From assembly GCA_963605145.1 (NCBI GenBank), contig CAVCTP010000001.1:1-51703 (forward strand): a DNA stretch of 51,703 bases, given 5' to 3'. The notes under the pieces were generated by a model that was given only the letters and a program-made list of their open reading frames with translations, was not told the origin of the DNA and did no database searches. The translations under genes and the position numbers were made by a program. How positions within the stretch are numbered: position 1 is the first letter of the stretch; each line of letters opens with the position of its first letter. The DNA comes from Tannerellaceae bacterium. GTDB lineage: Bacteria; Bacillota_I; Bacilli_A; Erysipelotrichales; Erysipelotrichaceae. Positions 14,762-28,623 of this stretch are shown here, one piece after another.

Positions 14762-16135
14762 CTAATCTATTGCTGATGCTATACCAGATTTACCATAACC
14801 ATATACATCTTGATTCTTATATACGGCATATAAGGTAAATATAAGCATTACAGATTCTGTTACTAAGTAACTATACCAAACTCCATCAATACCAAATATA
14901 AGTGGCAATACAATAACTGAAATATTAGATAAAACAACGTTTTCAATCATTGACAATATTGTTGAAGCCTTATAGTTAGATAAAGCAGCTAACAATTCTT
15001 GAACTATTAAATTATAAGCAAATATAAACAAGGCAAATGGTGATATAGCCATACCATAATAAATCATATGTTGCATATTGCTTTGAGTTGAATTCATTAA
15101 ATATAAAGATATTAATGGTTTCTTACAAACTGTATAAAGTAAGAATATACATACTGATAAACCAGTAGTTACAATAATAATTTGTTTTAATGTCTTAACT
15201 AACTTTTTCTTATTCTTTTCGCCATAAGCATATGAAGCAATTGGACAAACTGTGCCTAATAAGCCAAAATAAGAATTCATAAACATAAATTGAATATTAT
15301 TAACAATTGTTTGTGCTGCCACACCATCTTCCATAGCATAATGTAACATTACAATATTAGATACATAACTATTTAAAGAAATAGCTAAAGATGTTAAAGC
15401 AGATGACTTACCTAAATTGAATATTTCAATAAATAATTCAAATGGTTTTTCAACAAAGCTAGATAAATGTAATTCTCTATTTTTATTAAGATAGAATATA
15501 AAACCAATAATGGCAACTACCGCATTACTAATTAAGTTTGTATAAGCCGCACCAACAATGCCTACTTGTAACTTAACAATAAATAACCAGTCAAAGAAGA
15601 AGTTTAAGAAAGTACTTAAAACGGTAACAAAAACATTCATCTTTGGTTTTCCAGCTACAATATACGCTCTATTAAATATTTGAACAACTAAAATTAATGG
15701 AATATAGAAACGTGATACATTCATATATGCTAATGCATAATCCATTAAAACATCGGTTGCACCTAAGATAGTTAATATCTGTCTTCTAAACAAAGTTAGA
15801 ATAAGAGTTAAAATGCAGCCAATAAAGAAAGTAATACCAATCATTGTGGTAAATGAGCGGTTAGCTTCTTCATTTTTCTTCTCCCCCATTAAGATTGAAC
15901 ATTTAGTCACAATACAACCTAGAAGCATTGCCACTGCATCCACAACCATAAACCAAGGCATAGCGATGGAAAATGCTGCTAAAGCATTAGTTCCACAATA
16001 TCTCGAAAGAAATAAGCTATCATCAAGTGTTGCTAGTAATGAAGTAAATAACCTTGATATGACTGGTCCTAAAGAGAACTTAATCATTCCCCCAATTGTG
16101 TAATCTTTACCAATAGTATTTATTTTTTCGCTCAT
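14762..16135 (-). CDS. MATE-family efflux transporter
   Basis: 12-TM-like protein. The N-terminus KDYTIGGMIKFSLGPVISRLF is typical of MATE. The start is uncertain (ATG at 16135 or 16144; the track's TTG at 16165 is unlikely). Confidence 0.75.
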   Translation of the reverse strand: MSEKINTIGKDYTIGGMIKFSLGPVISRLFTSLLATLDDSLFLSRYCGTNALAAFSIAMPWFMVVDAVAMLLGCIVTKCSILMGEKKNEEANRSFTTMIGITFFIGCILTLILTLFRRQILTILGATDVLMDYALAYMNVSRFYIPLILVVQIFNRAYIVAGKPKMNVFVTVLSTFLNFFFDWLFIVKLQVGIVGAAYTNLISNAVVAIIGFIFYLNKNRELHLSSFVEKPFELFIEIFNLGKSSALTSLAISLNSYVSNIVMLHYAMEDGVAAQTIVNNIQFMFMNSYFGLLGTVCPIASYAYGEKNKKKLVKTLKQIIIVTTGLSVCIFLLYTVCKKPLISLYLMNSTQSNMQHMIYYGMAISPFALFIFAYNLIVQELLAALSNYKASTILSMIENVVLSNISVIVLPLIFGIDGVWYSYLVTESVMLIFTLYAVYKNQDVYGYGKSGIASAID

Positions 16136-16194
16136 GTTCAACATTGTAGCACAACATATAAGCAAAAGAAAGGATTCAAAATGATGCTAACACC

Positions 16195-16755
16195 TTATTT
16201 ATCGTTTTTTATAATATAAGAAGCCATCTGATACATTGCATCATAACTAACATTTCCACTTATTGAATAAGAATAATTATTAAAATTAAAAATACATAAT
16301 ATATAACTATCATTTTCTTTAAAAGTAACATCTACCCCATCAATGCTTACAATTTTCTCATCATCATATTTATTAGAATCACCTGAAATATCATCATTTC
16401 CAAGAGCCTTACGATAAGTAATATCACCAATATTAATCTCTAATATTTCATTATCTATAACTATATAAGATATAGAATCAGTATTATCATTCATAAAACT
16501 AAAATCAAAGCCAACTGCATCACATGCTTCATTTAAAGAACTATATTCTACTAATGGATTGACAATAGTTACATTTTCATCTTCTTTTTTAATTAAATTT
16601 ATACTAATACAAGTCGCAAAAAGTAAAACAAAGAAAGCAGGAATATATTTAAATATAGAAAATGTTTTCTTTTCCTTAAATTCATTTGGCAAGGCTTCAG
16701 TTACATATTTATCATCTATATCATTAATAACTTTTAATAAATCCATATTTTTCAT
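16195..16755 (-). CDS. Putative single-pass anti-sigma factor; its extracytoplasmic domain is paralogous to the lipoprotein at 17302-17766
   Basis: Short cytoplasmic N-terminus, one TM (FSIFKYIPAFFVLLFATCISI), and an extracellular domain. ATGA overlap with the sigma gene. Confidence 0.6.
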   Translation of the reverse strand: MKNMDLLKVINDIDDKYVTEALPNEFKEKKTFSIFKYIPAFFVLLFATCISINLIKKEDENVTIVNPLVEYSSLNEACDAVGFDFSFMNDNTDSISYIVIDNEILEINIGDITYRKALGNDDISGDSNKYDDEKIVSIDGVDVTFKENDSYILCIFNFNNYSYSISGNVSYDAMYQMASYIIKNDK

Positions 16756-17312
16756 AAATTATATCCTTCACCTATTAAATAGGTTTTTAAATCATCTCTT
16801 GTTCTTTTTAAAGACATCTTGACTGCGCTATTACTTAATGAAAGTTGCTTAGCTATTTCTTCAATATTAAATAAATAAAAATATCTCTTAACAAAAATGA
16901 TTCGATTATTCTTACTAATATTGCTTAAAAAATCATTAATAGAATCTTTAAGCAAACTATAATCAATATATTCTCTTACATTATCTTTATCACCAATTAC
17001 ACCATTTAATTCGTCTAAGGCTAAATCAGTTTCAGTTCCCGATCTTTTCTCAGCACTATATTTTTCAAATAAATTTATAGAAATATTTCGACAAATCTTA
17101 CCTACATAAGTCCTTAAATTATTTGGTCTATTATCGGGAATTGAATTCCAAGTTTTAAGATATGTTTCATTAACACAATCCTTTGCATCTTCATAATCAA
17201 AGAGGATATTGTAAGCAATCTTGCCACAATATCCTTCATATTTAGATGCAGTCTCCTTAATTGCTGACTCATCCCTATTCCAATATAAATTTACAATATC
17301 TTTATCTTCCAT
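16752..17312 (-). CDS. ECF-type (sigma-70 family, regions 2 and 4) RNA polymerase sigma factor
   Basis: Region-2-like DAKDCVNETYLKTWNSI and region-4 HTH NIEEIAKQLSLSNSAVKMSLKRTRDDLK. Confidence 0.85.
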   Translation of the reverse strand: MEDKDIVNLYWNRDESAIKETASKYEGYCGKIAYNILFDYEDAKDCVNETYLKTWNSIPDNRPNNLRTYVGKICRNISINLFEKYSAEKRSGTETDLALDELNGVIGDKDNVREYIDYSLLKDSINDFLSNISKNNRIIFVKRYFYLFNIEEIAKQLSLSNSAVKMSLKRTRDDLKTYLIGEGYNL

Positions 17313-17766
17313 TATTGATTACATCACTAATAGCATCTAAACTTAAGCCATTATTTGTAGTTATAGAATAAGAATAATCATCTACAATAAATGTTACACA
17401 ATTATATGTATCACCACTACCTTTTAAAGTAACTTCGACATCATTAATATTTTCTGTTTTAGTAATTTCATAACTATTGAAGTCACCAGAATAATCTTCA
17501 CTACCTTTACCTTTTCTAAAAATAATATCATCGCCATATCTTACTTCAATAAGTTCATCATTCATTACTTGAATTAAAGTAATTGATTTGCCATCAAGAG
17601 TATCTGGTACATTAAATTCAAAACCAGTAATCTTTGATGCTTCATCTAACGAATCAACTTCAACCCACGGATTGGCGATTTGATTGTTTTCTTCTTTATT
17701 AGAAGAACAGCCAACTAAACTCATAACTACAAATAAACTTGCTAATAAAATAAATAATTTTTTCAT
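17302..17766 (-). CDS. Lipoprotein, paralogous to the anti-sigma ectodomain
   Basis: Signal peptide plus lipobox: MKKLFILLASLFVVMSLVGC-SS. SD AAGGAGA upstream of the ATG at 17766. 11-nt overlap with the sigma gene. Confidence 0.75.
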   Translation of the reverse strand: MKKLFILLASLFVVMSLVGCSSNKEENNQIANPWVEVDSLDEASKITGFEFNVPDTLDGKSITLIQVMNDELIEVRYGDDIIFRKGKGSEDYSGDFNSYEITKTENINDVEVTLKGSGDTYNCVTFIVDDYSYSITTNNGLSLDAISDVINNGR

Positions 17767-17838
17767 GTTTTTCTTTCTCCTTGTAAGTAACCTTACAAAC
17801 ATATAGACAAGAAATGATTATGTTTGGTCACAATAAAT

Positions 17839-19014
17839 TTAATCTGCCTTTAAACATATTTGACATGCAGCATCATTTATTGATTTTGGTAATTCTTGTA
17901 TACCATTTTTCAAATTAGAATTATGCTTAATTTCCTCTAAACTTAATAGTTGTAAAGCATAACCTAATTCCATAATTTCAATTGGATTTCCAGCACCTGA
18001 AGAAAGATTTAATGGATTAGCATTCTGCAACAAGAACAACTTTTTACCATCAACTATATATTCCATTACACCATCTTGCATTTTTTCTTTATGGGATGTT
18101 ATTTTTTCTAATCCTTTAACATCAATTTCCATATTATAATGACCAGCATTACAAAGAATTGCTCCATCTTTCATCATACGGATTTGTTTTTCACACATAA
18201 CATCAAATCTACCAGTTACTGTAACAACTACATCTGCCATTGGTAATAGTTCTTCTAATTCACCAACAATATGTCCTTCAATTTTTGCTTTTAATAATCG
18301 TAAAGGTTCTATGTCATAAACCATTGTAGATGCACCAAGCGCTCTAAAGCGTTGTGAAATACCTGTTCCACAATAACCATAGCCGATAATTAAAATTTTC
18401 TTGCCACCAACAAGCATACTGGTTGCTCTCATAAAACCATCAACTACCGATTGACCTACACCTGCTTCATTTTCAACAAGACGTTTAACAGGTGAATCAT
18501 CAATAACTAAAACTGGAAAATTAGGGACAATATTTTCTTTTTCCAAAATTAATTTTCCTGAACGAGTTTCTTCTATAGCTCCAATAGGTTTCCATTTATC
18601 TTTTTGATTCCAATATTGATGCATCAAACTAGCACCATTGTCCATTAATAAATCATAAGAATCTTCCATCGCAAGTGATACATAATGTTTTAAATCATCA
18701 ATCGTATCATCCTTTTTAGCCATAACTGTTACATTAGGTAAAGTGGCAACATAAGCTGCAGTATCTGGTTTAGTTGAACCAAGATTACCAATAAATACAA
18801 TTTTCTTAGCACCACCTGCCAATAATACTTCTGTTCTAACTGCGGCCTTTGGTTCACAATGCATGCATACCAAAAAAGATGTATCTTTAAATGGTTGTTC
18901 TTTTTCATATCGATTTTTAAAAAGTTGAAGAACTTTCATTTTTTCACGATACCATTTAACTCTAGCTTCTCCATCATGAACTAATTCAGGATTATCAATT
19001 ATTGTTTCTAACAT
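17839..19014 (-). CDS. ahcY: Adenosylhomocysteinase-like protein (AhcY/SAHH family, short divergent form)
   Basis: NAD-binding KKILIIGYGYCGTGISQRFRALGA. N-terminal HCEPKAAVRTEVLLAGGAKK...GNLGSTKPDTAAYVA resembles the SAHH substrate domain. Confidence 0.65.
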   Translation of the reverse strand: MLETIIDNPELVHDGEARVKWYREKMKVLQLFKNRYEKEQPFKDTSFLVCMHCEPKAAVRTEVLLAGGAKKIVFIGNLGSTKPDTAAYVATLPNVTVMAKKDDTIDDLKHYVSLAMEDSYDLLMDNGASLMHQYWNQKDKWKPIGAIEETRSGKLILEKENIVPNFPVLVIDDSPVKRLVENEAGVGQSVVDGFMRATSMLVGGKKILIIGYGYCGTGISQRFRALGASTMVYDIEPLRLLKAKIEGHIVGELEELLPMADVVVTVTGRFDVMCEKQIRMMKDGAILCNAGHYNMEIDVKGLEKITSHKEKMQDGVMEYIVDGKKLFLLQNANPLNLSSGAGNPIEIMELGYALQLLSLEEIKHNSNLKNGIQELPKSINDAACQICLKAD

Positions 19015-19055
19015 ACACTAACCTCAACTTTCTCATAATATTGCGCTTTACATTT

Positions 19056-19082
19056 AAAATGTTCCTAAATTAGGAACATTTT
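19056..19082 (-). terminator. Strong intrinsic terminator closing the long minus-strand unit
   Basis: AAAATGTTCCTAA-a-TTAGGAACATTTT, a near-perfect palindrome with flanking A and T runs. Confidence 0.85.
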
Positions 19083-19103
19083 AGATAAAGATTATATGAA
19101 TGA

Positions 19104-20264
19104 TTAATATAACAATGTATCTACTTTATTAACTAAATCAATAAGTTTACTTCTACTATTTTCAATTAATTTTATGTTCTCTGGCTCACGTCTTAAAGTT
19201 CTTCTAAGACATCTAGTATAGCCAACAATTCTAGCTTTAAGTTTAACATCCTCTTTAAATTGTTCATCTTTATCTTCAAAATAGAAATCAATTAATTTAT
19301 TCCAAATATATGATGCAGTTTGCCAATCCATCATCATGAACTTTTCTGTTCTATTGTGATCTGTTTCGCCATATCCTACATAAGCTAAAAATATTGAAGC
19401 AAATTCAAAAATAGGATGGCCAACAGATAAAGTATCCATATCAATTAAGATAGCCTCACCATTGGCATAATGAACATTATTAGTATGATAATCACCATGA
19501 ATCATCGTATTTTGTTCAGGAACTGCATCAACTAATTTATATAACTTATCATATGTATCTGCTGGAATATGTCCATTTAACCATTCAACCCAAGATAAAA
19601 CTATTTGTTTTTCAGAAGGTAATAGTCCTGGTTTTACTTCAGTGCTATGTATTTCTTTAAGCATATCAGTGAATATCTTGATATATTTATCTTTATTTTC
19701 TGGTTCATCATTTATATATTTTGTTATAGATTTAGCACTTAACATTTCAAATACTGAACCATATTTATCACCAACTTTAACAACATCAAAAGGAATAGCG
19801 GTATTAATTCCTAAAACTAGAGCAGTTTTCGCAAGTTCTCTTTCTCTTTTTATTGATTCTAAAGCATCATTATTTTTATATACTTTGATAATAGTATCAG
19901 GATTTAAACGATAAACAATACCATTAGAACCCTCACCTATAACTTCACATCCATCAATTGAAACTTTACGATATGCTTTTTCAATATTCATCATTTCACT
20001 AAAGCCTGTCATCTCAAAAATTTCATATATTTCAGATGAACAATTGATAATCTTTAAATTAATATCCTTTTTTCTTAGTTTTAGAATTTGTCTTAAACCA
20101 GCGCTAGAAATATATTTTAAATTCTCTAAATCTAAAACTAAGGAACCTTGAGGAGTTTGAGATCTAATTTCTTCAATTTGCTTACCTACTTGTTCAGCAT
20201 TGCTGGTATCAACACTTCCATCAAGATATATTGTTAGTACATCATTTTCAAATTTGCTCTCCAT
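19104..20264 (-). CDS. Fusion protein: N-terminal STAS (anti-sigma antagonist) domain plus C-terminal APH/choline-kinase/protein-kinase-like phosphotransferase domain
   Basis: STAS: LKYISSAGLRQILKL ... EIFEMTGFSEMMNIE. Kinase-like: glycine loop GEGSNGIVY, IIKVYK, catalytic HGDYHTNNV, metal-binding LIDMDT. SD GGGGAGA. Confidence 0.8.
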   Translation of the reverse strand: MESKFENDVLTIYLDGSVDTSNAEQVGKQIEEIRSQTPQGSLVLDLENLKYISSAGLRQILKLRKKDINLKIINCSSEIYEIFEMTGFSEMMNIEKAYRKVSIDGCEVIGEGSNGIVYRLNPDTIIKVYKNNDALESIKRERELAKTALVLGINTAIPFDVVKVGDKYGSVFEMLSAKSITKYINDEPENKDKYIKIFTDMLKEIHSTEVKPGLLPSEKQIVLSWVEWLNGHIPADTYDKLYKLVDAVPEQNTMIHGDYHTNNVHYANGEAILIDMDTLSVGHPIFEFASIFLAYVGYGETDHNRTEKFMMMDWQTASYIWNKLIDFYFEDKDEQFKEDVKLKARIVGYTRCLRRTLRREPENIKLIENSRSKLIDLVNKVDTLLY

Positions 20265-20276
20265 CAGTTTTCTCCC

Positions 20277-20693
20277 CTATTTTATTGTTTTACGCATTAC
20301 AAAAATATTCAAACCATCAATTCTTTGATAAGCACATTCATCCATTGATTTTTTAACCATATAAATACCTAAACCACCAATATCTCTATCTTCGGCATTC
20401 AAAGTAACATCAGGATCTTTTTTATTTAACGGATTAAATTCCATACCAGAATCAACTAATTGAATATAGACATCTTCATCAGTAAACCATACAGCAATCA
20501 TGCATTTGCCTACCTTTTCACCATAGGCATAATTTGCGACATTGGTATACATCTCTTCTACCGCAATATCTATAGTCATCTGTGCTTTCATAGATGCACC
20601 ATGCATTTCTAATTGTTCATCAACAAAAGCTAATACGTCATGCATATTATCTACTTTTGCTTCAAATACTTTTTCTATATAATCTTTTTCCAT
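20277..20693 (-). CDS. RsbW/SpoIIAB-like anti-sigma regulatory Ser/Thr kinase (HATPase_c type)
   Basis: 138 aa. N-box-like AVEEMYTNVANYAY, DSGMEFNP, and G2 box GGLGIYMVKKSMD. Confidence 0.8.
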   Translation of the reverse strand: MEKDYIEKVFEAKVDNMHDVLAFVDEQLEMHGASMKAQMTIDIAVEEMYTNVANYAYGEKVGKCMIAVWFTDEDVYIQLVDSGMEFNPLNKKDPDVTLNAEDRDIGGLGIYMVKKSMDECAYQRIDGLNIFVMRKTIK

Positions 20694-20695
20694 AA

Positions 20696-21727
20696 TTAAT
20701 ATATATTATATTTACATCCACTATGGTGAATTCTTTTTTCCTCATACATTCTCGAATCAGCTAATAATGTAAGTTTATCAAAATCTAAGCCTGGATCTTC
20801 TTTGGTACATGCGTGACCTACAGATATAGAAATATCCATATCAGAATGTATTAACTTATATGTTGAACAATATTCTTTAAATTTATTAATCATCTCTTGA
20901 GGATTGATATCCTTAGATATAACTACAAATTCATCGCCACCAATTCTAAAGCACTCTGATCCTTCAAAAATCTTTTGAATTGCGGTAGCAGCAGCTTTAA
21001 TTAATTCATCACCAGCCTCATGGCCATAAGTATCGTTGGTGTATTTTAAATGATTTAAGTCAAAAGAGAAACAACATAAATCATTTTTAATGCCTTCTTT
21101 TCTTATCTTTTCTCTTACTTCGTTATAATATTTACGATTATGTAAATTTGTTAAAGCATCATAATAAGATTCTTGATAAATTTTCTTATAAAGTAATTGT
21201 CTTTGCCACATTAGGAAGGTATTAGAACCAAAGGATGCAAAATATAGTAAAGGAAAACGTAACATAAAGTTAGGAGTATAGTAATCCTTAACAATACTTG
21301 AAAGTGGTGTATAAAATAAAACAATTATAAATATTTGAAAGTATAAACTTAAGATAAAGCCAAAACCCATACCTACTAGTAACATGCCAATAGCAGGTAC
21401 TAATAATATCCACAAAATCGCAAAGCCATCATTGCCACCTGTTAAGGCAAAGAAAGAAAACATTCCACCACACAAGATAACTATGATTGTTCTGCTTATT
21501 ATATATTTCTTCTTTAAAGCAAATAAAGCAGAAATAAAAAAGCCAATAGAAAGAATAGTAGTGGCAATACTCATAAATGGTTTAACATGGTTAGAAAAAT
21601 TAACGCCAGTTAAAATAATAGAAATAACCATAAAAAACATACTACCGAATAATTCTTCGGAGTAAGCATTTTTATTAGTTATTTCTCTGCCCTTTTCTTT
21701 AAAAAGAAAATTCAACAATTTATGCAC
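20696..21727 (-). CDS. Membrane-bound diguanylate cyclase (GGDEF domain)
   Basis: About 6 TM helices, then DALTNLHNRKY ... FDLNHLKYTNDTYGHEAGDELI ... RIGGDEFVV. GTG start with SD AGGGGA. No RxxD I-site is visible five residues upstream of GGDEF (the sequence there is GSECF). Confidence 0.9.
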   Translation of the reverse strand: MHKLLNFLFKEKGREITNKNAYSEELFGSMFFMVISIILTGVNFSNHVKPFMSIATTILSIGFFISALFALKKKYIISRTIIVILCGGMFSFFALTGGNDGFAILWILLVPAIGMLLVGMGFGFILSLYFQIFIIVLFYTPLSSIVKDYYTPNFMLRFPLLYFASFGSNTFLMWQRQLLYKKIYQESYYDALTNLHNRKYYNEVREKIRKEGIKNDLCCFSFDLNHLKYTNDTYGHEAGDELIKAAATAIQKIFEGSECFRIGGDEFVVISKDINPQEMINKFKEYCSTYKLIHSDMDISISVGHACTKEDPGLDFDKLTLLADSRMYEEKRIHHSGCKYNIY

Positions 21728-21770
21728 TATTAATCCCCTATCTAGTTAATAAATTATTAAAATTAAACAA

Positions 21771-22067
21771 TTATTCAATTGTCAAAATAGATGTAAAACC
21801 AGTAATTTCAAATACTTCCAAGACTTCTGGTTTAACATTAATTATTTTCATAGTTCCTAGATTATTCATCTTCTTTTGTGCTGCTAGTATAACTCTTAAA
21901 CCAGCAGAAGATATATAGTCTAGTTGCGCAAAATCAAATACTAATTCTTTAATAGTATCTAATGTTCCATCTAATTCTTTTTCTAATTCAGGAGCAGTTG
22001 TTGTATCTAATCTACCTTCTAGGCCAATAGTACATAAACTACCATCAATTAATTTATTTATCTTCAA
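21771..22067 (-). CDS. STAS-domain anti-sigma-factor antagonist (SpoIIAA/RsbV-like)
   Basis: 98 aa, with LDYISSAGLRVIL carrying the conserved phosphorylatable Ser, and EVFEITGFTSILTIE. TTG start 6 nt after SD GGAGG. Confidence 0.85.
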   Translation of the reverse strand: MKINKLIDGSLCTIGLEGRLDTTTAPELEKELDGTLDTIKELVFDFAQLDYISSAGLRVILAAQKKMNNLGTMKIINVKPEVLEVFEITGFTSILTIE

Positions 22068-22099: not shown

Positions 22100-23581
22100 T
22101 CAATCTTCTTCAATTATTTCTATTGCTTTAAGCATTTGATAATCATTTTCTTGCTTGGCAAGACTTGCGACAACTTCAGATATTAAGCAATCATATGTTT
22201 GTTTATCTAATTTACTATCTGCACTTAAGTCATTATCAATCTTAAATTCTTTTAAAGCATCGGCAAATTCTTCATTGAAATAACCATCTTGACGATCATC
22301 ATAATAATTTAAGAAAGTTAAACATTTTTGGGCTACAGCAACCTTATCACTAACGCAATCTAGTTCTAAGACTTCATCTTCTTTCATAGCCTCGTATTGT
22401 TCATAATAGATATCAGCTTCCTTAACTTCAACATCAGGAATTATACCTGTACCATGAATAGAATTACCATTAGGTGAATACCATCTATAACTAGTAAATT
22501 TAATTGCCCCGCCATTTGATAAATAACGACTTGATTGAATTACGCCTTTACCATAGGTTGTAGTACCAACAATAGTAACATTATCTAATTGTTCTTTTAG
22601 ACAAATTGTAAATACTTCAGCTGCTGAAGCAGTATTTTCATTAACAAGTAAAACAATTGAATCAAAGTTTGTATATGTCTTTGTGCATGAAGTTTTACTT
22701 TCTATAACATTACCATTTTTATCTTCTTGTTTTAGATATACTCTATCATTGCCAATAAATAAGCCACAAATTTCACTAACTGAATTTTGATATCCGCCAC
22801 CATCATTTCTTAAATCAATGATAATCTTCTTATAATCGGTATATTGATCGAGATATGTCATACAATCTTTAGCAGTAGTTTCACCAAAACTATAGATATG
22901 TAAGACCACATGATCGTCTTCTGCATAACAATAAACCGAATTATCAATAGCAGCACGAGTAATTTCCATATCGATATACTCACTACCTCTTAAAACAGTA
23001 ATTGTTACAATTGTTCCTTCTTCACCTAATACTTTTTCTTTGAGTTCACTTGATTCCATGCCGCTAGTAGATTCACCATCTACATGAGTTATGATATCTC
23101 CTGCCTGCATGCCGGCTTTTTCAGCGGGTGAGTTAATAATTACTCTTTCAATTAATGGATAATCACCTTGAACAACATAAACTACACCAATACCAACATA
23201 TTCCATATTGATACTCTCAGAAAATTCTTCCATTTCCTTTTTTGACATATAAGTAGTATATGGATCATCTTCAAATTCCGTCATACCATAAAAAGCCTTA
23301 TCCTCTAATTCGCTTTGTAGGTCTTCATATTCATCAGAATATAACCAATAGTTCTCTAATAGAGCTTCTATTTCACCAAGCGTATTTGTTGCATCAGCAT
23401 TTTTTCTAGGGTATAAATCTCTATAAAAAATAATTCCTAAACCAAAACCAATAAATAAAAATAAGATAAGTATAAAAGAATAGAGAAAAATCTTCTTTCT
23501 TTTTTGCTTCTTTTCATTTCTTTCTGATTCCAAAGGAACCTTTTTTAAATTTACATAAACTTTATCATTTTCTTCATTCAT
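22100..23581 (-). CDS. S41-family C-terminal processing peptidase (Ctp) with a PDZ domain and a C-terminal peptidoglycan-binding-like repeat
   Basis: N-terminal TM. PDZ SPAEKAGMQAGDIITHVDG. Catalytic region NENTASAAEVF and YGKGVIQ. Start is either the ATG at 23581 or the GTG at 23590. Confidence 0.85.
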   Translation of the reverse strand: MNEENDKVYVNLKKVPLESERNEKKQKRKKIFLYSFILILFLFIGFGLGIIFYRDLYPRKNADATNTLGEIEALLENYWLYSDEYEDLQSELEDKAFYGMTEFEDDPYTTYMSKKEMEEFSESINMEYVGIGVVYVVQGDYPLIERVIINSPAEKAGMQAGDIITHVDGESTSGMESSELKEKVLGEEGTIVTITVLRGSEYIDMEITRAAIDNSVYCYAEDDHVVLHIYSFGETTAKDCMTYLDQYTDYKKIIIDLRNDGGGYQNSVSEICGLFIGNDRVYLKQEDKNGNVIESKTSCTKTYTNFDSIVLLVNENTASAAEVFTICLKEQLDNVTIVGTTTYGKGVIQSSRYLSNGGAIKFTSYRWYSPNGNSIHGTGIIPDVEVKEADIYYEQYEAMKEDEVLELDCVSDKVAVAQKCLTFLNYYDDRQDGYFNEEFADALKEFKIDNDLSADSKLDKQTYDCLISEVVASLAKQENDYQMLKAIEIIEED

Positions 23582-23582
23582 T

Positions 23583-24947
23583 TTAAGCACCCGGTAAATA
23601 CCATTCAGGATTTAAGATACATGGCGCAGATTGTCTACGCGATCCATCATTGTAATAACATCTATTATTATATGCAGTTCTTCCTCTACCACATGACCAA
23701 GTAACATTCCAAGACATGTCTAGATATTCATCTAATGTGCCACTACCTAATTCATACATTTCAATATGACAATGTGGTCCAGTTGATTGACCAGATGAGC
23801 CAACTAAGGCAATTACATCATCTTGTAAGACAAAGTCACCTACACTTACTTTTAAAGAATTTAAATGCATGAAGATAAAGCCATAAACCTTGCCATCAAC
23901 TTCACACATCATATATATTTGATTACCGCCACCACCTAGTGGCACGCCACATGAGTCAAATACATAAGATTTATTTACATCAGGGCAACTACTACTAGCT
24001 CTAACTATAACACCTGTTGCTGGGGCATGAACTTCCGTATATCTACTAGCGGCATAATCAACACCTAAATGCCATTTACCATCTAAGAAATCAGATGAAT
24101 AATTCCAAACTCCAGCAGAAATCCAAGAATTATGTACACAGGCAACAAAGCCAGTACTAACACTAATTCCGGCATCCCTTACCGCATCGGCAATAGTAGA
24201 AAATGATTCATAGACATTATCTTTTTCTTCATTCATTCTATCTAATTCTTCCTGAATCTCAGCAGCTTGTTGTTCATAATACTCTTGCATTACTTTTAAT
24301 TCTTCTTGCTTAGTAACTAATTCTTTATAGCTTTCATCTAAAACACTTTTAGATTCATCTAATTCTTTCTTATCATTAGTTAATTGAGTAATTATTTCAA
24401 TATAATCTTCTCTATCAGCCTTATCTTTAGAAACAACAGCCTCAACGCCATAGATTCTTCTAAGCATATCTGTAAAAGATTTTGAACCCAATATAAATTC
24501 CAAATAACCATTAAAATGCATCGTCTTTTGCGAATTTACCATTCTATTTTTAACACGTGTATTTAAAGCTTCTACTAATGCTTCATTTTCAGCTATTTGC
24601 GTTTCTAATTCTTCTATCCTTACTTTTAATTCATTAATTTGGGTAGCTAAAGAATCAATCTCTTCTTGCATTCCTTCAGCTTCCTTAGCATATTTATTGG
24701 CTAATTCTTCTTTAGCTTCTTTATCATCTTTAGCGTTTTCTATCTCTTTTTCTTTTTCCTTTACTTTGTTTCTAGCATCTTCATACATCTGTTGACATTC
24801 TTCATAAGTGAACTCTTCACCATTAATAACGCAACCTTCATTTTCTGATGTATCTTCATCATCTTCAGCATAAATAAAACTTGCTTCGTTTAAATTAAGC
24901 AAGACTAATAATAAACATAGTAAAACTGATAATATTTTTTTAGGCAT
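23583..24947 (-). CDS. Secreted coiled-coil M23 metallopeptidase (PcsB/EnvC-like partner of FtsEX)
   Basis: Signal peptide, a long coiled coil of about 200 aa, then M23 motifs HLGVDYAA and GPHCHIEMY, so the catalytic residues are retained. TAATG coupling to ftsX. Confidence 0.85.
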   Translation of the reverse strand: MPKKILSVLLCLLLVLLNLNEASFIYAEDDEDTSENEGCVINGEEFTYEECQQMYEDARNKVKEKEKEIENAKDDKEAKEELANKYAKEAEGMQEEIDSLATQINELKVRIEELETQIAENEALVEALNTRVKNRMVNSQKTMHFNGYLEFILGSKSFTDMLRRIYGVEAVVSKDKADREDYIEIITQLTNDKKELDESKSVLDESYKELVTKQEELKVMQEYYEQQAAEIQEELDRMNEEKDNVYESFSTIADAVRDAGISVSTGFVACVHNSWISAGVWNYSSDFLDGKWHLGVDYAASRYTEVHAPATGVIVRASSSCPDVNKSYVFDSCGVPLGGGGNQIYMMCEVDGKVYGFIFMHLNSLKVSVGDFVLQDDVIALVGSSGQSTGPHCHIEMYELGSGTLDEYLDMSWNVTWSCGRGRTAYNNRCYYNDGSRRQSAPCILNPEWYLPGA

Positions 24948-25843
24948 TATCTAGTTAACCTCAAATACTTGCATACCGAAATGTAAGAACCAATAAAACC
25001 AACAACAATGCCAATTAATAATAAAGCTAAAGACAAATATAAAATATATGGAAATACGGGAATTAAAGATAATACACCAGCTAAAACACCACCTGATAAG
25101 TTATATAAACGATAATAACCATAAATAATTAAACCAATAGGAATAATAGAACCAATAACACCAATAATAATTCCTTCTACCAAGAATGGTGCTCTAATAT
25201 AACCATTTTTAGCGCCGACATTTCTCATGATGATAATTTCATCTTTTCTAGTAGCAATTGTAACTTTAATAGTGTTATAGATTAGATAGATTGCTAGTAA
25301 GACTAAAGCTAAAACAAATATAGCACCAGCCAATCTAGTTTCTTGTAGGATATTAATTAAACGATAGGTATTAGTACCACCATCTTCTACAGAAGATATG
25401 CCATTAATCTTACCGATATTGGTTTTGATAGTAGACATATTTGAACCTTCAGTTAAAGAAACAATATAAACATCATGGAAAGGATTATCTTCACGATATA
25501 ATTCAGAGAACTCTACCATATCAGGATATTGTTCATTATAATAATCAAATTCTTGATCCTTTGTACGATATTCAACAGATAAAACACCATCCATATTTTC
25601 TATTTGTTTTTGCATAGATTTTAATTGTGTTTGATCTGTAACATCATAATCAATCAAAGCAACTAAAGATATAGATTGTTCTATTTCTTGAGTTAAGAAA
25701 GCAACATTACTTACTAGGACCGCAAAAACACCAATCATCGTTAAAGTAATTGTTACCGCAGTAGCACTAGAAAAAGCCATCCCAAAGTGACGTCTAACAC
25801 CAATAAAGCCTTCTTTTATATGTCTAAAAAATCTTCTAAACAT
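24947..25843 (-). CDS. ftsX: Cell-division ABC transporter permease FtsX
   Basis: 4-TM FtsX topology with a large extracellular loop. I prefer the ATG at 25843 (SD GAAGGTGA) over the track's GTG at 25852. Confidence 0.85.
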   Translation of the reverse strand: MFRRFFRHIKEGFIGVRRHFGMAFSSATAVTITLTMIGVFAVLVSNVAFLTQEIEQSISLVALIDYDVTDQTQLKSMQKQIENMDGVLSVEYRTKDQEFDYYNEQYPDMVEFSELYREDNPFHDVYIVSLTEGSNMSTIKTNIGKINGISSVEDGGTNTYRLINILQETRLAGAIFVLALVLLAIYLIYNTIKVTIATRKDEIIIMRNVGAKNGYIRAPFLVEGIIIGVIGSIIPIGLIIYGYYRLYNLSGGVLAGVLSLIPVFPYILYLSLALLLIGIVVGFIGSYISVCKYLRLTR

Positions 25844-26603
25844 TTTCTTCACCTTCTATTTCATCATCTTGCTTTTCAATAGGTAAAGAATTAATGGTAT
25901 TTAAGAATTGTTCTTCATTTTCCTTATTATCTTTAATATATGGATGATCATGAGTTATATGACCTGACTCAATTGTGATAATCCTCTTTGGGTGATTTTT
26001 AACCATTACATTATCATGAGTAACAACTAAAATGGTTGTTTTTTCTTCTTCATTAATTCTTTCTAAAATGGTAATAATCTCATTAGTCATTGCGGGATCT
26101 AGATTACCAGTAGGTTCATCAGCAATTAAAATAGCTGGCTTTTTAGAAATAGCTCTAGCAATAGCTACTCTTTGCTTCATACCACCAGATAATTGTGAAG
26201 GATAGGCCTTAGCCTTATCTTCTAGACCAACAAGTTTTAAAACTTCTCTTACCCTTTTTCTAATCTTTTCTGTAGGCATATCTAGTATTTCTAAAGCATA
26301 TGCTACATTTTCATAAGCTGTCTTTTCAGGTAAAAGTTTATAATCTTGGAATACTACGCCAATCTTTCTTCTATATAAATATACCTTTGATTTTCTAAGT
26401 CTACCTACATCAACACCAGATACTAGTACTTTTCCACTAGTAGCAATCTCTTCACCATCTAGTAATTTAATTAATGTTGATTTGCCAGAACCAGTAGGCC
26501 CAATAATATAAGCAAACTCGCCATCTTGTATCTCTAAATTAATGTTGTGTAAAGCATTTGTACCGTTTTTATATGTCTTTGAAACATTTCTAAGTTCTAT
26601 CAT
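25836..26603 (-). CDS. ftsE: Cell-division ABC transporter ATPase FtsE
   Basis: Walker A GPTGSGKST, signature LSGGMKQR, Walker B ILIADEPT. Acidic C-terminal extension. Confidence 0.9.
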   Translation of the reverse strand: MIELRNVSKTYKNGTNALHNINLEIQDGEFAYIIGPTGSGKSTLIKLLDGEEIATSGKVLVSGVDVGRLRKSKVYLYRRKIGVVFQDYKLLPEKTAYENVAYALEILDMPTEKIRKRVREVLKLVGLEDKAKAYPSQLSGGMKQRVAIARAISKKPAILIADEPTGNLDPAMTNEIITILERINEEEKTTILVVTHDNVMVKNHPKRIITIESGHITHDHPYIKDNKENEEQFLNTINSLPIEKQDDEIEGEENV

Positions 26604-26664: not shown

Positions 26665-27657
26665 TTACAAATTAGCAAACATATCTTTTGCATATAATCC
26701 AATATCTCTAGGGGAATTCATATTATATTTTTCTTTTATCTTTATAAAATAATCACCAATTATCTGTTTATCGATAATTTTAATAGAGATAGCACCATCT
26801 GAAAGTTCTCCTCTAGTATTAATCCATGGAGATTCATTATGAGTAAAAATTTCTAAAACCTTTCCACTATAACAACAAATATTTCTAATTACACTATCTA
26901 AAATTGCTTTTTCCTGTGTTGTGAATATAGATGAATCAAATGAATCAACTTTCAAGATTGGATCAAAATGATAATTGGCATATCTACTATAAATATCTCT
27001 ATAAACCGGACCATGTGACCAAGCTTCACAATCTTCTTTAAATATAAAATTTCCATAAAAGGCATAATAAAATCCTTGAATATAATAAAGACTCTTTTGT
27101 AGTGCGAGTGGCGTAATATCCTCACATTGATTTAAAAGATAAGCAATAACTTCATTTATCTTTTCACTAGATTTTTCATTATTAATTAAAGTCCTAACAG
27201 CTTTTAAACTTTTTTCATAAGTCTGTTTAGAATTCAAACGTTCTTTATTTTCCTCTAAAATATTTAGATAATAAGTAGGCTCATTAAATAAACGATTTAA
27301 AATCTCAGAATATTGTCTAGTAGGTATATCTCCATCAGCATAACGAGTAAAGGTATGTTCTCCCCAACCTAAAAGTATTGATAATGGACGTTTACCAATG
27401 GCATAGCGCTTAGGAATTGATTGAATCTTTTCAAGAGAAACAATACCATTTTCTTTTCGATATACATCATAAAGTGCTTTTAGATTAAACTCACTAATTT
27501 CTTCTACATCTATATAGGCTCCACAATTAGCACACTTTGCCTGCTTTCCTATATAGTGATAATCAACACCACGAATTGTTCCAACCATTTCCTTTTCTTC
27601 AATAATATATTCAACATCATCTCTACATTCTTCACAAAATACTTTTCTTTCGTTCAT
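26665..27657 (-). CDS. Putative antitoxin: MqsA-like zinc ribbon plus HTH, fused to a Panacea (DUF4065, SocA/GepA-like) domain
   Basis: CEEC...CANC zinc ribbon. HTH-like LSILLGWGEHTFTRYADGDIPTRQYSEILNRL (compare MqsA, from memory: GGGVNAFSRYEKGNAQPHPSTIKLLRVL). Panacea-like ITPLALQKSLYYIQGFYYAFYGNFIFKEDCEAWSHGPVYRDIY. The true start is the ATG at 27657, 8 nt after SD GGAGG; the track's TTG start is part of that SD. Confidence 0.7.
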   Translation of the reverse strand: MNERKVFCEECRDDVEYIIEEKEMVGTIRGVDYHYIGKQAKCANCGAYIDVEEISEFNLKALYDVYRKENGIVSLEKIQSIPKRYAIGKRPLSILLGWGEHTFTRYADGDIPTRQYSEILNRLFNEPTYYLNILEENKERLNSKQTYEKSLKAVRTLINNEKSSEKINEVIAYLLNQCEDITPLALQKSLYYIQGFYYAFYGNFIFKEDCEAWSHGPVYRDIYSRYANYHFDPILKVDSFDSSIFTTQEKAILDSVIRNICCYSGKVLEIFTHNESPWINTRGELSDGAISIKIIDKQIIGDYFIKIKEKYNMNSPRDIGLYAKDMFANL

Positions 27658-27678
27658 AATATTTTCCTCCAAAAATTC

Positions 27679-28137
27679 TTATTTAAATAAATATTCAATA
27701 GGTTTATTTAACTTATGAAAAGAGACGACAATTGTTCTATTTCCATTTAGTCTTTCAATCACATTGAACTTGGTATATATATCAATCTTTTCTTTTTCTC
27801 CTAGAGCATTAAACATTTCAACTTGAGGAACAAAAACATAAAGAATTTCATGCTCATATCCTATTTTTGTATTTTGTAAAGTATGACAAAAATCTTCTAT
27901 AGAAATTTGCATTAATATTTCTTTTCTCTTCTTAGGATAAATATTGTATTCATTTATAAAATTAATATTCTCCTGCCTATTTTCATTCATTGAAATCTGA
28001 AATCGGCCAGTTTCAACACATTCTTTTATTTTCAAAAGAACACTTTCAATTTCTTCCCTAGTATAATTTTGATTGTAATGCGAATTAGTCACTTCTTTAA
28101 TGTCCTTTCGTATATTATTATACACTATATGTACCAT
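27679..28137 (-). CDS. MqsR-like toxin candidate (ribosome-independent mRNA interferase family) with an extra N-terminal segment of about 40 aa
   Basis: By-eye alignment to E. coli MqsR, recalled from memory: LLKIKECVETGRFQIS vs VKKLVNAGQVRTT; ISIEDFCHTLQN vs LSESDFYKSMTT; ILYVFVPQ vs QDVYRPR; IDIYTKFNV vs VYLKITV; IVVSFHKL vs LIVSFKEK. Toxin-first gene order, as in mqsRA. Confidence 0.6.
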   Translation of the reverse strand: MVHIVYNNIRKDIKEVTNSHYNQNYTREEIESVLLKIKECVETGRFQISMNENRQENINFINEYNIYPKKRKEILMQISIEDFCHTLQNTKIGYEHEILYVFVPQVEMFNALGEKEKIDIYTKFNVIERLNGNRTIVVSFHKLNKPIEYLFK

Positions 28138-28299: not shown

Positions 28300-28623
28300 A
28301 TGAAACTAATACTTGCGATTATCTCAAATGATGATGCTAAAGCATGTACTTCAGCATTAAACAAAGCTTCTTATCATGTTACTAGACTTGCAACTACTGG
28401 TGGTTTCTTATCAGCTGGTAATACAACATTAATTATTGGTTGTGAAGACAAAGAAGTTGATAGAGCCATTGAAATCATCGGTTCTGAATCTCAAAGAAGA
28501 AAAGAAGCTGTACCTTCAGCTATGGCTGGTGAACTTGGTGGTCTTACAGTTTATCCAATCGAGGTTGAAGTTGGCGGTGCAACAATCTTTGTTTTAAATG
28601 TTGATCAATTTAAGAAACTATAA
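28300..28623 (+). CDS. darA: Cyclic-di-AMP receptor, PII-like (DarA/PstA, YaaQ family)
   Basis: MKLILAIISNDDA...HVTRLATTGGFLSAGNTTLIIG...GGATIFVLNVDQF. SD AAGGAG. Confidence 0.85.
   Translation: MKLILAIISNDDAKACTSALNKASYHVTRLATTGGFLSAGNTTLIIGCEDKEVDRAIEIIGSESQRRKEAVPSAMAGELGGLTVYPIEVEVGGATIFVLNVDQFKKL

Follow-up and report, generated by a model that had tools for sequence, protein, structure and literature searches.

Organisation of the four-gene operon

The window analysed here is a 51,703-nt stretch of DNA (contig CAVCTP010000001.1) from an uncultured Erysipelotrichaceae bacterium, and the element under study is a cluster of four minus-strand genes within it, which encode a standalone STAS protein, a membrane GGDEF diguanylate cyclase, an RsbW/SpoIIAB-type serine kinase, and a second STAS domain fused to a kinase-like domain of the APH fold. 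An original prediction, made from the letters alone, had described this cluster as a partner-switching module with no sigma factor, whose output is probably cyclic di-GMP (c-di-GMP) synthesis. Here we favour, at slightly better than even confidence, a different reading, in which the cluster derives, by reduction within one lineage, from a partner-switching module that works independently of sigma factors and is widespread among gut and rumen Bacillota, with the fused kinase as the output of that module. The features of the locus are as follows.

21771-22067, minus strand: STAS protein (98 aa, TTG start, GGAGG ribosome-binding site), an anti-anti-sigma-type antagonist
20696-21727, minus strand: membrane GGDEF diguanylate cyclase (343 aa)
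20277-20693, minus strand: RsbW/SpoIIAB-type serine kinase (138 aa, HATPase_c_2)
19104-20264, minus strand: STAS::APH-like kinase fusion (386 aa)
19971-20264, minus strand: fused STAS domain (aa 1-98 of the fusion; Pfam STAS)
19104-19958 including the stop codon, minus strand: APH / eukaryotic-like kinase-fold domain (aa ~103-386 of the fusion; Pfam APH)
19046-19090, minus strand: intrinsic-terminator-like hairpin (13-bp core stem, U-rich 3' side) that closes the operon

The coordinates and lengths of the four genes, and the gaps of 43, 2 and 12 nt that separate them in the order STAS, GGDEF, RsbW and fusion, agreed with the original prediction, and the same four proteins are present in independent gene calls of public metagenome-assembled genomes (MAGs). 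The start codon of the RsbW-like gene lies 2 nt past the GGDEF stop codon. The terminal hairpin, missed by a simple terminator scan and detected by direct folding, folds at -19.4 kcal/mol (z = -5.3), which was equalled by 0 of 200 shuffles. The four genes form one operon.

The domain assignments predicted for the four proteins were all recovered with Pfam and NCBIfam, together with the quoted motifs, the approximately six hydrophobic segments and the RIGGDEF motif with no RxxD. The standalone STAS protein matched Pfam STAS (1.6e-15) and TIGR00377 (5.9e-18) and carries the phospho-acceptor-equivalent serine within DYISSAGLR, which is kept in 45 of 45 free STAS proteins of related loci. The fused STAS domain (Pfam STAS, 1.7e-14) shares 42% identity with it and places Ser54, within KYISSAGLR, at the phospho-acceptor position of SpoIIAA; both domains align to SpoIIAA with a serine at that position. 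The RsbW-like kinase matched Pfam HATPase_c_2 (1.4e-21) and, in the PDB, RsbW (6m36), and its N-box is well conserved among related domains (E47 in 69/69, N51 in 62/69), as are the G-boxes. The nearest named NCBIfam families were RsbW, SpoIIAB and SpoIIAA, all under cutoff.

The cyclase consists of about six hydrophobic segments (aa ~26-172), resembling MASE6, ahead of the GGDEF domain (aa 188-333, nt 20729-21166; Pfam GGDEF, 3.4e-26). The MASE6 match of the window protein itself is weak (6.5e-4, 20.2 bits, vs the Pfam cutoff of 27.4), and many GGDEF homologues at 40-52% identity carry a precomputed PF20966 (MASE6) match. The GGDEF domain, which keeps RIGGDEF, can be aligned over its full length with active cyclases such as 4urs, with the substrate- and metal-binding motifs matched, and it looks catalytically competent; the prospect of an inactive GGDEF protein, raised in the original prediction, thus found no support in the motifs. 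The RxxD I-site that would lie five residues upstream of GGDEF is absent. Between the window lineage and its sister lineage, represented by locus L091, dN/dS is 0.16 for the cyclase and 0.14-0.23 for all four genes, against 0.07-0.10 for the flanking housekeeping genes in the same comparison. Since all four genes are under purifying selection, the cyclase is predicted to be functional and not a passenger pseudogene.

The STAS-kinase fusion defines a large family

The kinase half of the fusion matched Pfam APH (1.7e-12, 48.1 bits vs a cutoff of 23.2), and its best NCBIfam match was TIGR02172 (8e-35, 120.6 bits), under the cutoff of 228.2. By these scores the protein is a relative, and not a member, of this Fibrobacter paralogous kinase-like family. 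In an alignment of 50 diverse members of the fusion family, S54, G56 and L57 of the STAS half are invariant, as are G110, G112, K127, H256, D258, N263 and D275 of the kinase half, with E141 nearly so. These residues comprise the P-loop glycines, the beta3 Lys127, the catalytic-loop His256, Asp258 and Asn263, and Asp275. The loss of catalytic residues that the original prediction had considered for the kinase-like domain was accordingly not found, and both the APH-like and the RsbW-like kinases retain theirs.

The AlphaFold2 model of the fusion is a confident single body (pLDDT 95.5, pTM 0.86), and this suggests that the STAS and kinase halves are rigidly coupled. Its best Foldseek kinase matches were APH(2''), APH(3'), methylthioribose kinase and capreomycin phosphotransferase (Cph), with probability 1.0, TM scores of 0.5-0.59 normalised by target, and 12-18% identity, to which a profile search added hygromycin kinase, YtaA/CotI, choline kinase and YihE. 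The kinase half is therefore predicted to adopt a small-molecule-kinase-like fold that is distant from every characterised enzyme. A role in aminoglycoside resistance was rejected, since APH enzymes are only 12-18% identical and the gene context is regulatory.

A word-indexed search with the fusion returned 7526 matches, the top 120 of which are all of ~386 aa with the same architecture and are labelled either 'phosphotransferase' or 'anti-sigma factor antagonist'. An exhaustive search of representatives yielded 669 clusters at 50% identity (E<=1e-30), the best 150 of which match over near-whole length, down to ~35% identity. Furthermore, in a one-genome-per-species set we confirmed at least 594 matches, which span Erysipelotrichaceae, Lachnospiraceae, Oscillospiraceae, Ruminococcaceae, Acutalibacteraceae, Mogibacterium/Anaerovoracaceae and others, and which lie almost all in gut and rumen MAGs, mostly of Bacillota. 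A few matches are filed under Bacteroidota, as Bacteroides, Prevotella, Alloprevotella and Muribaculaceae 'cleanbin' assemblies (L021, L027, L037, L050, L076, L082); these are probably mis-binned contigs and not real Bacteroidota occurrences.

The fusion belongs to a conserved module in other species

We then examined the neighbourhoods of the best 80 of the at least 594 fusion loci, all from other species, by calling open reading frames (ORFs) and applying iterated domain profiles, and counted same-strand partners up to 4.5 kb from the fusion gene. Because contig ends cut many loci, the counts below are lower bounds.

RsbW-like domain: 55/80 loci
HD_4 (RelA/SpoT-type) hydrolase: 51/80 loci, in 45 directly upstream of the fusion and often overlapping its start
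free STAS protein of ~98 aa: 47/80 loci
PP2C domain: 39/80 loci, in 34 within one polypeptide with RsbW
GGDEF domain: 0/80 loci

The PP2C-RsbW proteins, of 600-950 aa, consist in Pfam terms of a 5TMR-LYT or other membrane domain, with or without dCache, followed by SpoIIE and HATPase_c_2, whereas the HD_4/HD proteins of these relatives are of ~190 aa. Both enzymes keep their active-site motifs, since the PP2C metal-binding Asp residues are retained in 39-40 of 40 and the HD and ED motifs of HD_4 in 50 of 50. Among the 131 nearest non-module neighbours at the 80 loci, no Pfam family occurred more than three times and no sigma family recurred.

Several loci join the components in single polypeptides. 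A triple fusion STAS-APH-HATPase_c_2 of ~534 aa is encoded at L073:6300-7904, with similar ones in L075, L077 and L081, in Mogibacterium, Anaerovoracaceae and Lachnospiraceae MAGs, and a free STAS gene precedes each. This natural gene fusion is evidence that the STAS-kinase protein functions together with the RsbW-like kinase. Directly upstream of the STAS-kinase fusion in L015, a 302-aa ORF with an ATG start (L015:5097-6005) fuses STAS to HD_4, so the hydrolase can also be STAS-tagged. An RsbW-like domain also occurs at the C-terminus of MatE proteins, at L007:601-2346 and in about seven others (for example L008:597-2342, with similar ones in L021, L025, L028 and L066), recurrently beside the modules; to our knowledge, an RsbW-type kinase anchored by a transporter has not been described. 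The MatE protein of the window (14762-16165) was rejected as an orthologue of these, being 21% identical and having no RsbW domain. A fusion of GGDEF to RsbW was dropped as Rosetta-stone support, since none was found among the 120 closest RsbW homologues.

The closest relatives of the standalone RsbW lie in a Ruminococcus locus that has no STAS-kinase fusion (L095:1076-6426), in the order STAS - NRPS-like protein (AMP-binding + Condensation, 996 aa) - SpoIIE - RsbW. The gene resembling a non-ribosomal peptide synthetase (NRPS) is another variable 'cargo' between the STAS gene and the phosphatase/kinase genes.

The cyclase is a lineage-specific addition

The gene order of L091, ftsEX-M23-S41-STAS-GGDEF-RsbW-fusion-AdoHcyase, is identical to that of the window, with 88% identity for the fusion and 85% for the GGDEF protein. 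Relatives at ~75% share the downstream LeuRS-YhhN-PfkB-symporter synteny, and their modules read STAS - unknown - two C39/ABC exporters - RsbW - HD_4 - fusion, with no GGDEF. At L087:150-4972, and likewise in L088 and L089, the slot of the GGDEF gene holds a 156-160-aa protein and two C39-peptidase/ABC exporters of the bacteriocin-export type. At 70-73%, the arrangement is either STAS - (TM-PP2C-RsbW) - HD_4 - fusion, where TM denotes a transmembrane part, or STAS - RsbW - fusion.

The identity of GGDEF homologues falls from 85% straight to 56%, and the three that we examined at or below 56% (L092-L094) have unrelated neighbours, with no STAS or RsbW. A cyclase within the module was seen only in the window species and L091. 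Because it is confined to these two lineages, is absent from syntenic relatives and has its homologues elsewhere, the cyclase is best regarded as a recent, lineage-specific insertion in the STAS-to-RsbW slot, and the c-di-GMP link would likewise be specific to this lineage. An origin by domain swap for the PP2C of a TM-PP2C-RsbW protein was rejected, as the GGDEF membrane domain showed no detectable similarity to the sensor domain of the closest PP2C-RsbW proteins; it is also disfavoured by the GGDEF homologues being free-standing MASE6-GGDEF proteins elsewhere.

The HD_4 gene and the PP2C moiety are missing from the cluster in the GGDEF-bearing lineage, which would thus have lost both the sensor-PP2C part and the hydrolase gene. 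At L010:4223-5431, the PP2C-RsbW protein is shortened to 402 aa, with no membrane domain, and its PP2C is degenerate (Pfam 2e-13 vs ~1e-46 in neighbours); L010 looks like an intermediate in phosphatase loss within this Erysipelotrichaceae clade.

No cognate sigma factor or phosphatase in the window

Every window ORF of at least 90 aa was scanned for domains. No PP2C/SpoIIE domain was detected in the 51.7-kb window, as the original prediction had stated for the cluster and its surroundings; as a property of the system this absence misleads, since in relatives the PP2C is fused to RsbW. Similarly, the window holds no sigma factor, group-3 included, other than one of the extracytoplasmic function (ECF) type.

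16752-17312, minus strand: ECF sigma factor (186 aa), 1.8 kb downstream of the cluster
16195-16755, minus strand: DUF4367 membrane protein (186 aa), a probable anti-sigma factor whose gene overlaps the ECF sigma gene

These two genes and that of a putative lipoprotein (166 aa, no Pfam match) make up an overlapping three-gene unit at 16195-17802 on the minus strand. The ECF sigma and DUF4367 genes are absent from L091, which keeps the four-gene cluster, so the ECF factor is not expected to be the partner. It was rejected as the cognate sigma factor on this ground and for its own overlapping anti-sigma gene. Hence, the earlier statement that no sigma factor lies in or next to the cluster overlooked this gene, although it stands with respect to a partner. 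The data support a partner-switching-type module that has no cognate sigma factor.

Proposed mechanism and competing explanations

The GGDEF association is lineage-specific while the fusion and its partners are widespread, and therefore the conserved output is probably the fused STAS-kinase. In the mechanism that we favour, the conserved module would comprise a free STAS protein, an RsbW-like kinase that usually forms one protein with a membrane sensor and a PP2C phosphatase, an HD_4 phosphohydrolase, and the STAS-APH-fold kinase. The RsbW-like kinase, for which the free and the fused STAS would compete, would bind and phosphorylate the conserved serine of both STAS domains, and PP2C would reverse this phosphorylation upon a membrane signal. 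The bound or phosphorylated state of the fused STAS domain would then gate the attached kinase, the real output. This cycle and the gating are modelled on SpoIIAA/AB/E and RsbV/W/U. The co-translated HD_4 hydrolase probably opposes the kinase on the same or a related phosphorylated small molecule; that both act on one metabolite is a speculation suggested by the gene overlap, the RelA/SpoT-type HD chemistry and the kinase fold. In the window lineage, a MASE6-type cyclase gene would have been inserted between the STAS and RsbW genes, where it would be co-transcribed, maintained by selection and probably translationally coupled to RsbW. Synthesis of c-di-GMP would thus be at least co-expressed with the module, and may serve as an extra output or the protein as a membrane anchor, as a recent add-on and not as the function of the module.

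Several points weigh against this mechanism. RsbW is not found nearby in 25 of the 80 loci, and 5 of the 67 loci with enough upstream flank show zero partners. We infer both who phosphorylates whom and what the APH-like kinase acts upon, and a protein substrate is possible, as APH-fold enzymes include protein kinases of the CotS/CotI type, to which the matches are weak. The window lineage has neither PP2C nor HD_4, so the module may differ here or be partly decayed. Moreover, relatives carry other cargo between STAS and RsbW, namely ABC exporters or an NRPS-like enzyme. This slot could be an insertion hot spot or a plug-in place for regulated outputs, and in the latter case a real GGDEF link would be favoured.

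For c-di-GMP to be the output, the membrane GGDEF protein would be bound by RsbW or by unphosphorylated STAS, whether free or fused, and the cyclase would thereby be toggled, as in HsbA-HsbD, BgrV-BgrR and SiaC-SiaD. The position of the GGDEF gene within the operon, separated by 43 nt from STAS and by 2 nt from RsbW, speaks for this output, as do the intact catalytic motifs, the dN/dS of 0.16 and the retention of the cyclase in two lineages. Furthermore, because the cyclase lacks the I-site, some other control would be needed; there are precedents for partner-switch control of cyclases (PMC8457831; and Moorella, through a citing passage of PMC4976288); the RsbW domains of relatives are tethered to membrane proteins, and the 2-nt GGDEF-RsbW junction leaves room for a physical link of GGDEF to RsbW or to STAS; and other cargo enzymes occupy the STAS-to-RsbW slot in relatives. 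The original prediction had made this output depend on the four genes being conserved as neighbours. They are not, as GGDEF is absent near the fusion in all 80 other species as well as in the syntenic 75% relatives, GGDEF homologues at or below 56% have no STAS/RsbW neighbours, and the 120 closest RsbW relatives include zero GGDEF-RsbW fusions. The membrane domain of the cyclase is also unrelated to the PP2C-RsbW sensor domain, and the conserved fused kinase would be left unexplained. We consider c-di-GMP as the output unlikely, and direct regulation of the cyclase by the module likewise unlikely. Thus the observation at the heart of the original prediction and its sigma-less partner-switching module stand, whereas its c-di-GMP interpretation is not supported.

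The fusion could instead be a self-contained kinase-substrate unit, in which the APH-like domain phosphorylates the serine of its own or the free STAS domain as a second input beside RsbW. The invariance of both the kinase catalytic residues and STAS Ser54 in the fusion family is consistent with such a unit, as are weak sequence matches to the protein-kinase-like CotI/CotS/YtaA and to SteC. However, it is small-molecule kinases (APH(2''), APH(3'), methylthioribose, hygromycin and choline kinases) that match best in structure and profile searches, and the tight HD_4 linkage would go unexplained. In addition, 55 of the 80 loci also encode an RsbW-type kinase, which is the canonical kinase of STAS proteins and is even found within the same polypeptide, so that a second STAS kinase would be redundant; such a unit is very improbable. 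We give scarcely any credence to a classical anti-sigma module, in which RsbW sequesters a distant sigma factor or the nearby ECF one, STAS is the anti-anti-sigma factor, and GGDEF and APH are incidental. The under-cutoff NCBIfam names, the ECF sigma gene 1.8 kb downstream and the fact that inspection covered 51.7 kb of the genome leave some room for it, but no recurring sigma family lies near the module in 80 species, the ECF factor has its own overlapping DUF4367 anti-sigma factor and is missing from L091, and RsbW in relatives is fused to membrane proteins, phosphatases or the STAS-kinase, with no sigma linkage.

A more specific version of the mechanism that we favour appears improbable. 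In it, the STAS::APH-like kinase and HD_4 would act in opposition as writer and eraser of a phosphorylated small molecule, which might be a messenger of the nucleotide type, and the membrane-sensor PP2C/RsbW partner switch would gate them. The window lineage would then have replaced the hydrolase and the phosphatase with a c-di-GMP cyclase, thus rewiring the switch to another second messenger. If this is true, hundreds of gut Bacillota species would share a signalling pathway that has gone unrecognised.

Relation to known systems

Partner switching is usually taught as sigma-factor control. Partner switches that act independently of sigma factors are also known. The module shares with RsbV-RsbW-RsbU and SpoIIAA-SpoIIAB-SpoIIE of Bacillus a STAS protein with a phosphorylatable serine, a GHKL-type HATPase_c_2 kinase and, in relatives, a PP2C phosphatase, and the sequences of the cluster align to the SpoIIAA and RsbW structures. 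It differs from them in having no sigma target in the window or near the module in the 80 loci, in the second STAS fused to an APH-fold kinase, and in the joining of phosphatase and kinase into one membrane-anchored polypeptide in relatives, whereas the window cluster has no PP2C. M. tuberculosis Rv1364c likewise contains PP2C and an RsbW-like kinase in one protein, which is cytoplasmic, PAS-linked and tied to SigF. The TM-sensor-SpoIIE-HATPase_c_2 proteins of the relatives share this joining, but they are sensors in the membrane, built on 5TMR-LYT with or without dCache, do not depend on a sigma factor and are paired with enzymes that carry a STAS tag.

Cyclases under partner-switch control are known from the HptB-HsbR-HsbA-HsbD and SiaABCD systems of P. 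aeruginosa and from BgrSTUWV-BgrR of S. meliloti, and in HsbA-HsbD, BgrV-BgrR and SiaC-SiaD the cyclase is controlled through the phosphorylation of the STAS protein (PMC8457831). The stressosome of Moorella thermoacetica regulates a downstream diguanylate cyclase through an RsbT homologue, as cited in a passage of PMC4976288, and so the earlier remark that no Gram-positive example is characterised does not hold. Given these precedents, partner-switch control of cyclases, including the Firmicute case, is not new. In the window cluster, as in the HsbD, BgrR, SiaD and Moorella systems, a GGDEF cyclase is encoded alongside a serine kinase and a protein of the STAS or STAS-like type. Unlike those, its cyclase is a MASE6-type membrane protein whose association is limited to two close lineages, the cluster encodes no phosphatase, and its conserved partner is the extra STAS-kinase fusion.

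The kinase half shares with APH/choline-kinase-like enzymes (PF01636) the fold, the P-loop, the beta3 lysine and the HGDxxxxN and DxD motifs. It differs from these small-molecule kinases in its 12-18% identity to the structural matches and in being always preceded by STAS within a partner-switch operon, and, unlike the antibiotic-resistance APH enzymes, it gives no indication of resistance. For the STAS-APH fusion, for which the original prediction had likewise known of no described function, and for the PP2C-RsbW/HD_4 module, we found no description in the searchable literature, and a STAS review does not mention such STAS-kinase fusions. The STAS::APH-like kinase family and its PP2C-RsbW/HD_4 module thus appear undescribed.

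The object of interest is therefore the widespread STAS-kinase module, rather than the cyclase, which is a lineage-specific rewiring. It represents a very large, unstudied gut and rumen Firmicute family, in which STAS domains are joined straight to enzymes, namely an APH-fold kinase and sometimes an HD_4 hydrolase, and RsbW-like kinases to membrane sensors, phosphatases or transporters. If the fused kinase makes a signalling metabolite and HD_4 does remove it, abundant commensals would possess a new small-molecule pathway under post-translational gating. The window cluster, a switch minus phosphatase and hydrolase and plus a cyclase, is a natural experiment through which the gain of new outputs by such modules can be explored. 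For annotation, both labels carried by the fusion proteins, 'phosphotransferase' and 'anti-sigma factor antagonist', are misleading.

Genes flanking the operon

Upstream of the operon, a cell-wall remodelling string of ftsE, ftsX, an M23/PcsB-like gene and an S41 gene (CtpA-like, PDZ + PG_binding_1) occupies 22100-26603 on the minus strand and ends 32 nt ahead of the STAS gene. No terminator was detected between the S41 end of this string and the STAS gene, and read-through into the partner-switch operon is possible. The linkage of this string to the module was not seen in more distant relatives.

Downstream, the operon adjoins an adenosylhomocysteinase-like gene (17839-19014, minus strand), which matched NF004005 (311 bits vs a cutoff of 275) and TIGR00936 (290 vs 498). 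As it lies far under the TIGR00936 cutoff, we regard it as a divergent short form, and in the strain variant L005 two ABC ATPase genes replace it.

PADLOC gave zero matches for every module component, and an anti-phage defence system was rejected on this basis. Exact-match context look-ups for two other window proteins gave no return. Further upstream, a SocA/Panacea-domain protein of 335 aa with an N-terminal Zn-ribbon-like CxxC pair (26665-28137, minus strand) is preceded by a 152-aa ORF with no Pfam match, and the two may be a toxin-antitoxin pair. Finally, one of the few plus-strand genes, at 28300-28623 and ~6 kb from the c-di-GMP cyclase, encodes a c-di-AMP receptor family protein of the CdAMP_rec/DarA type (3.6e-37).

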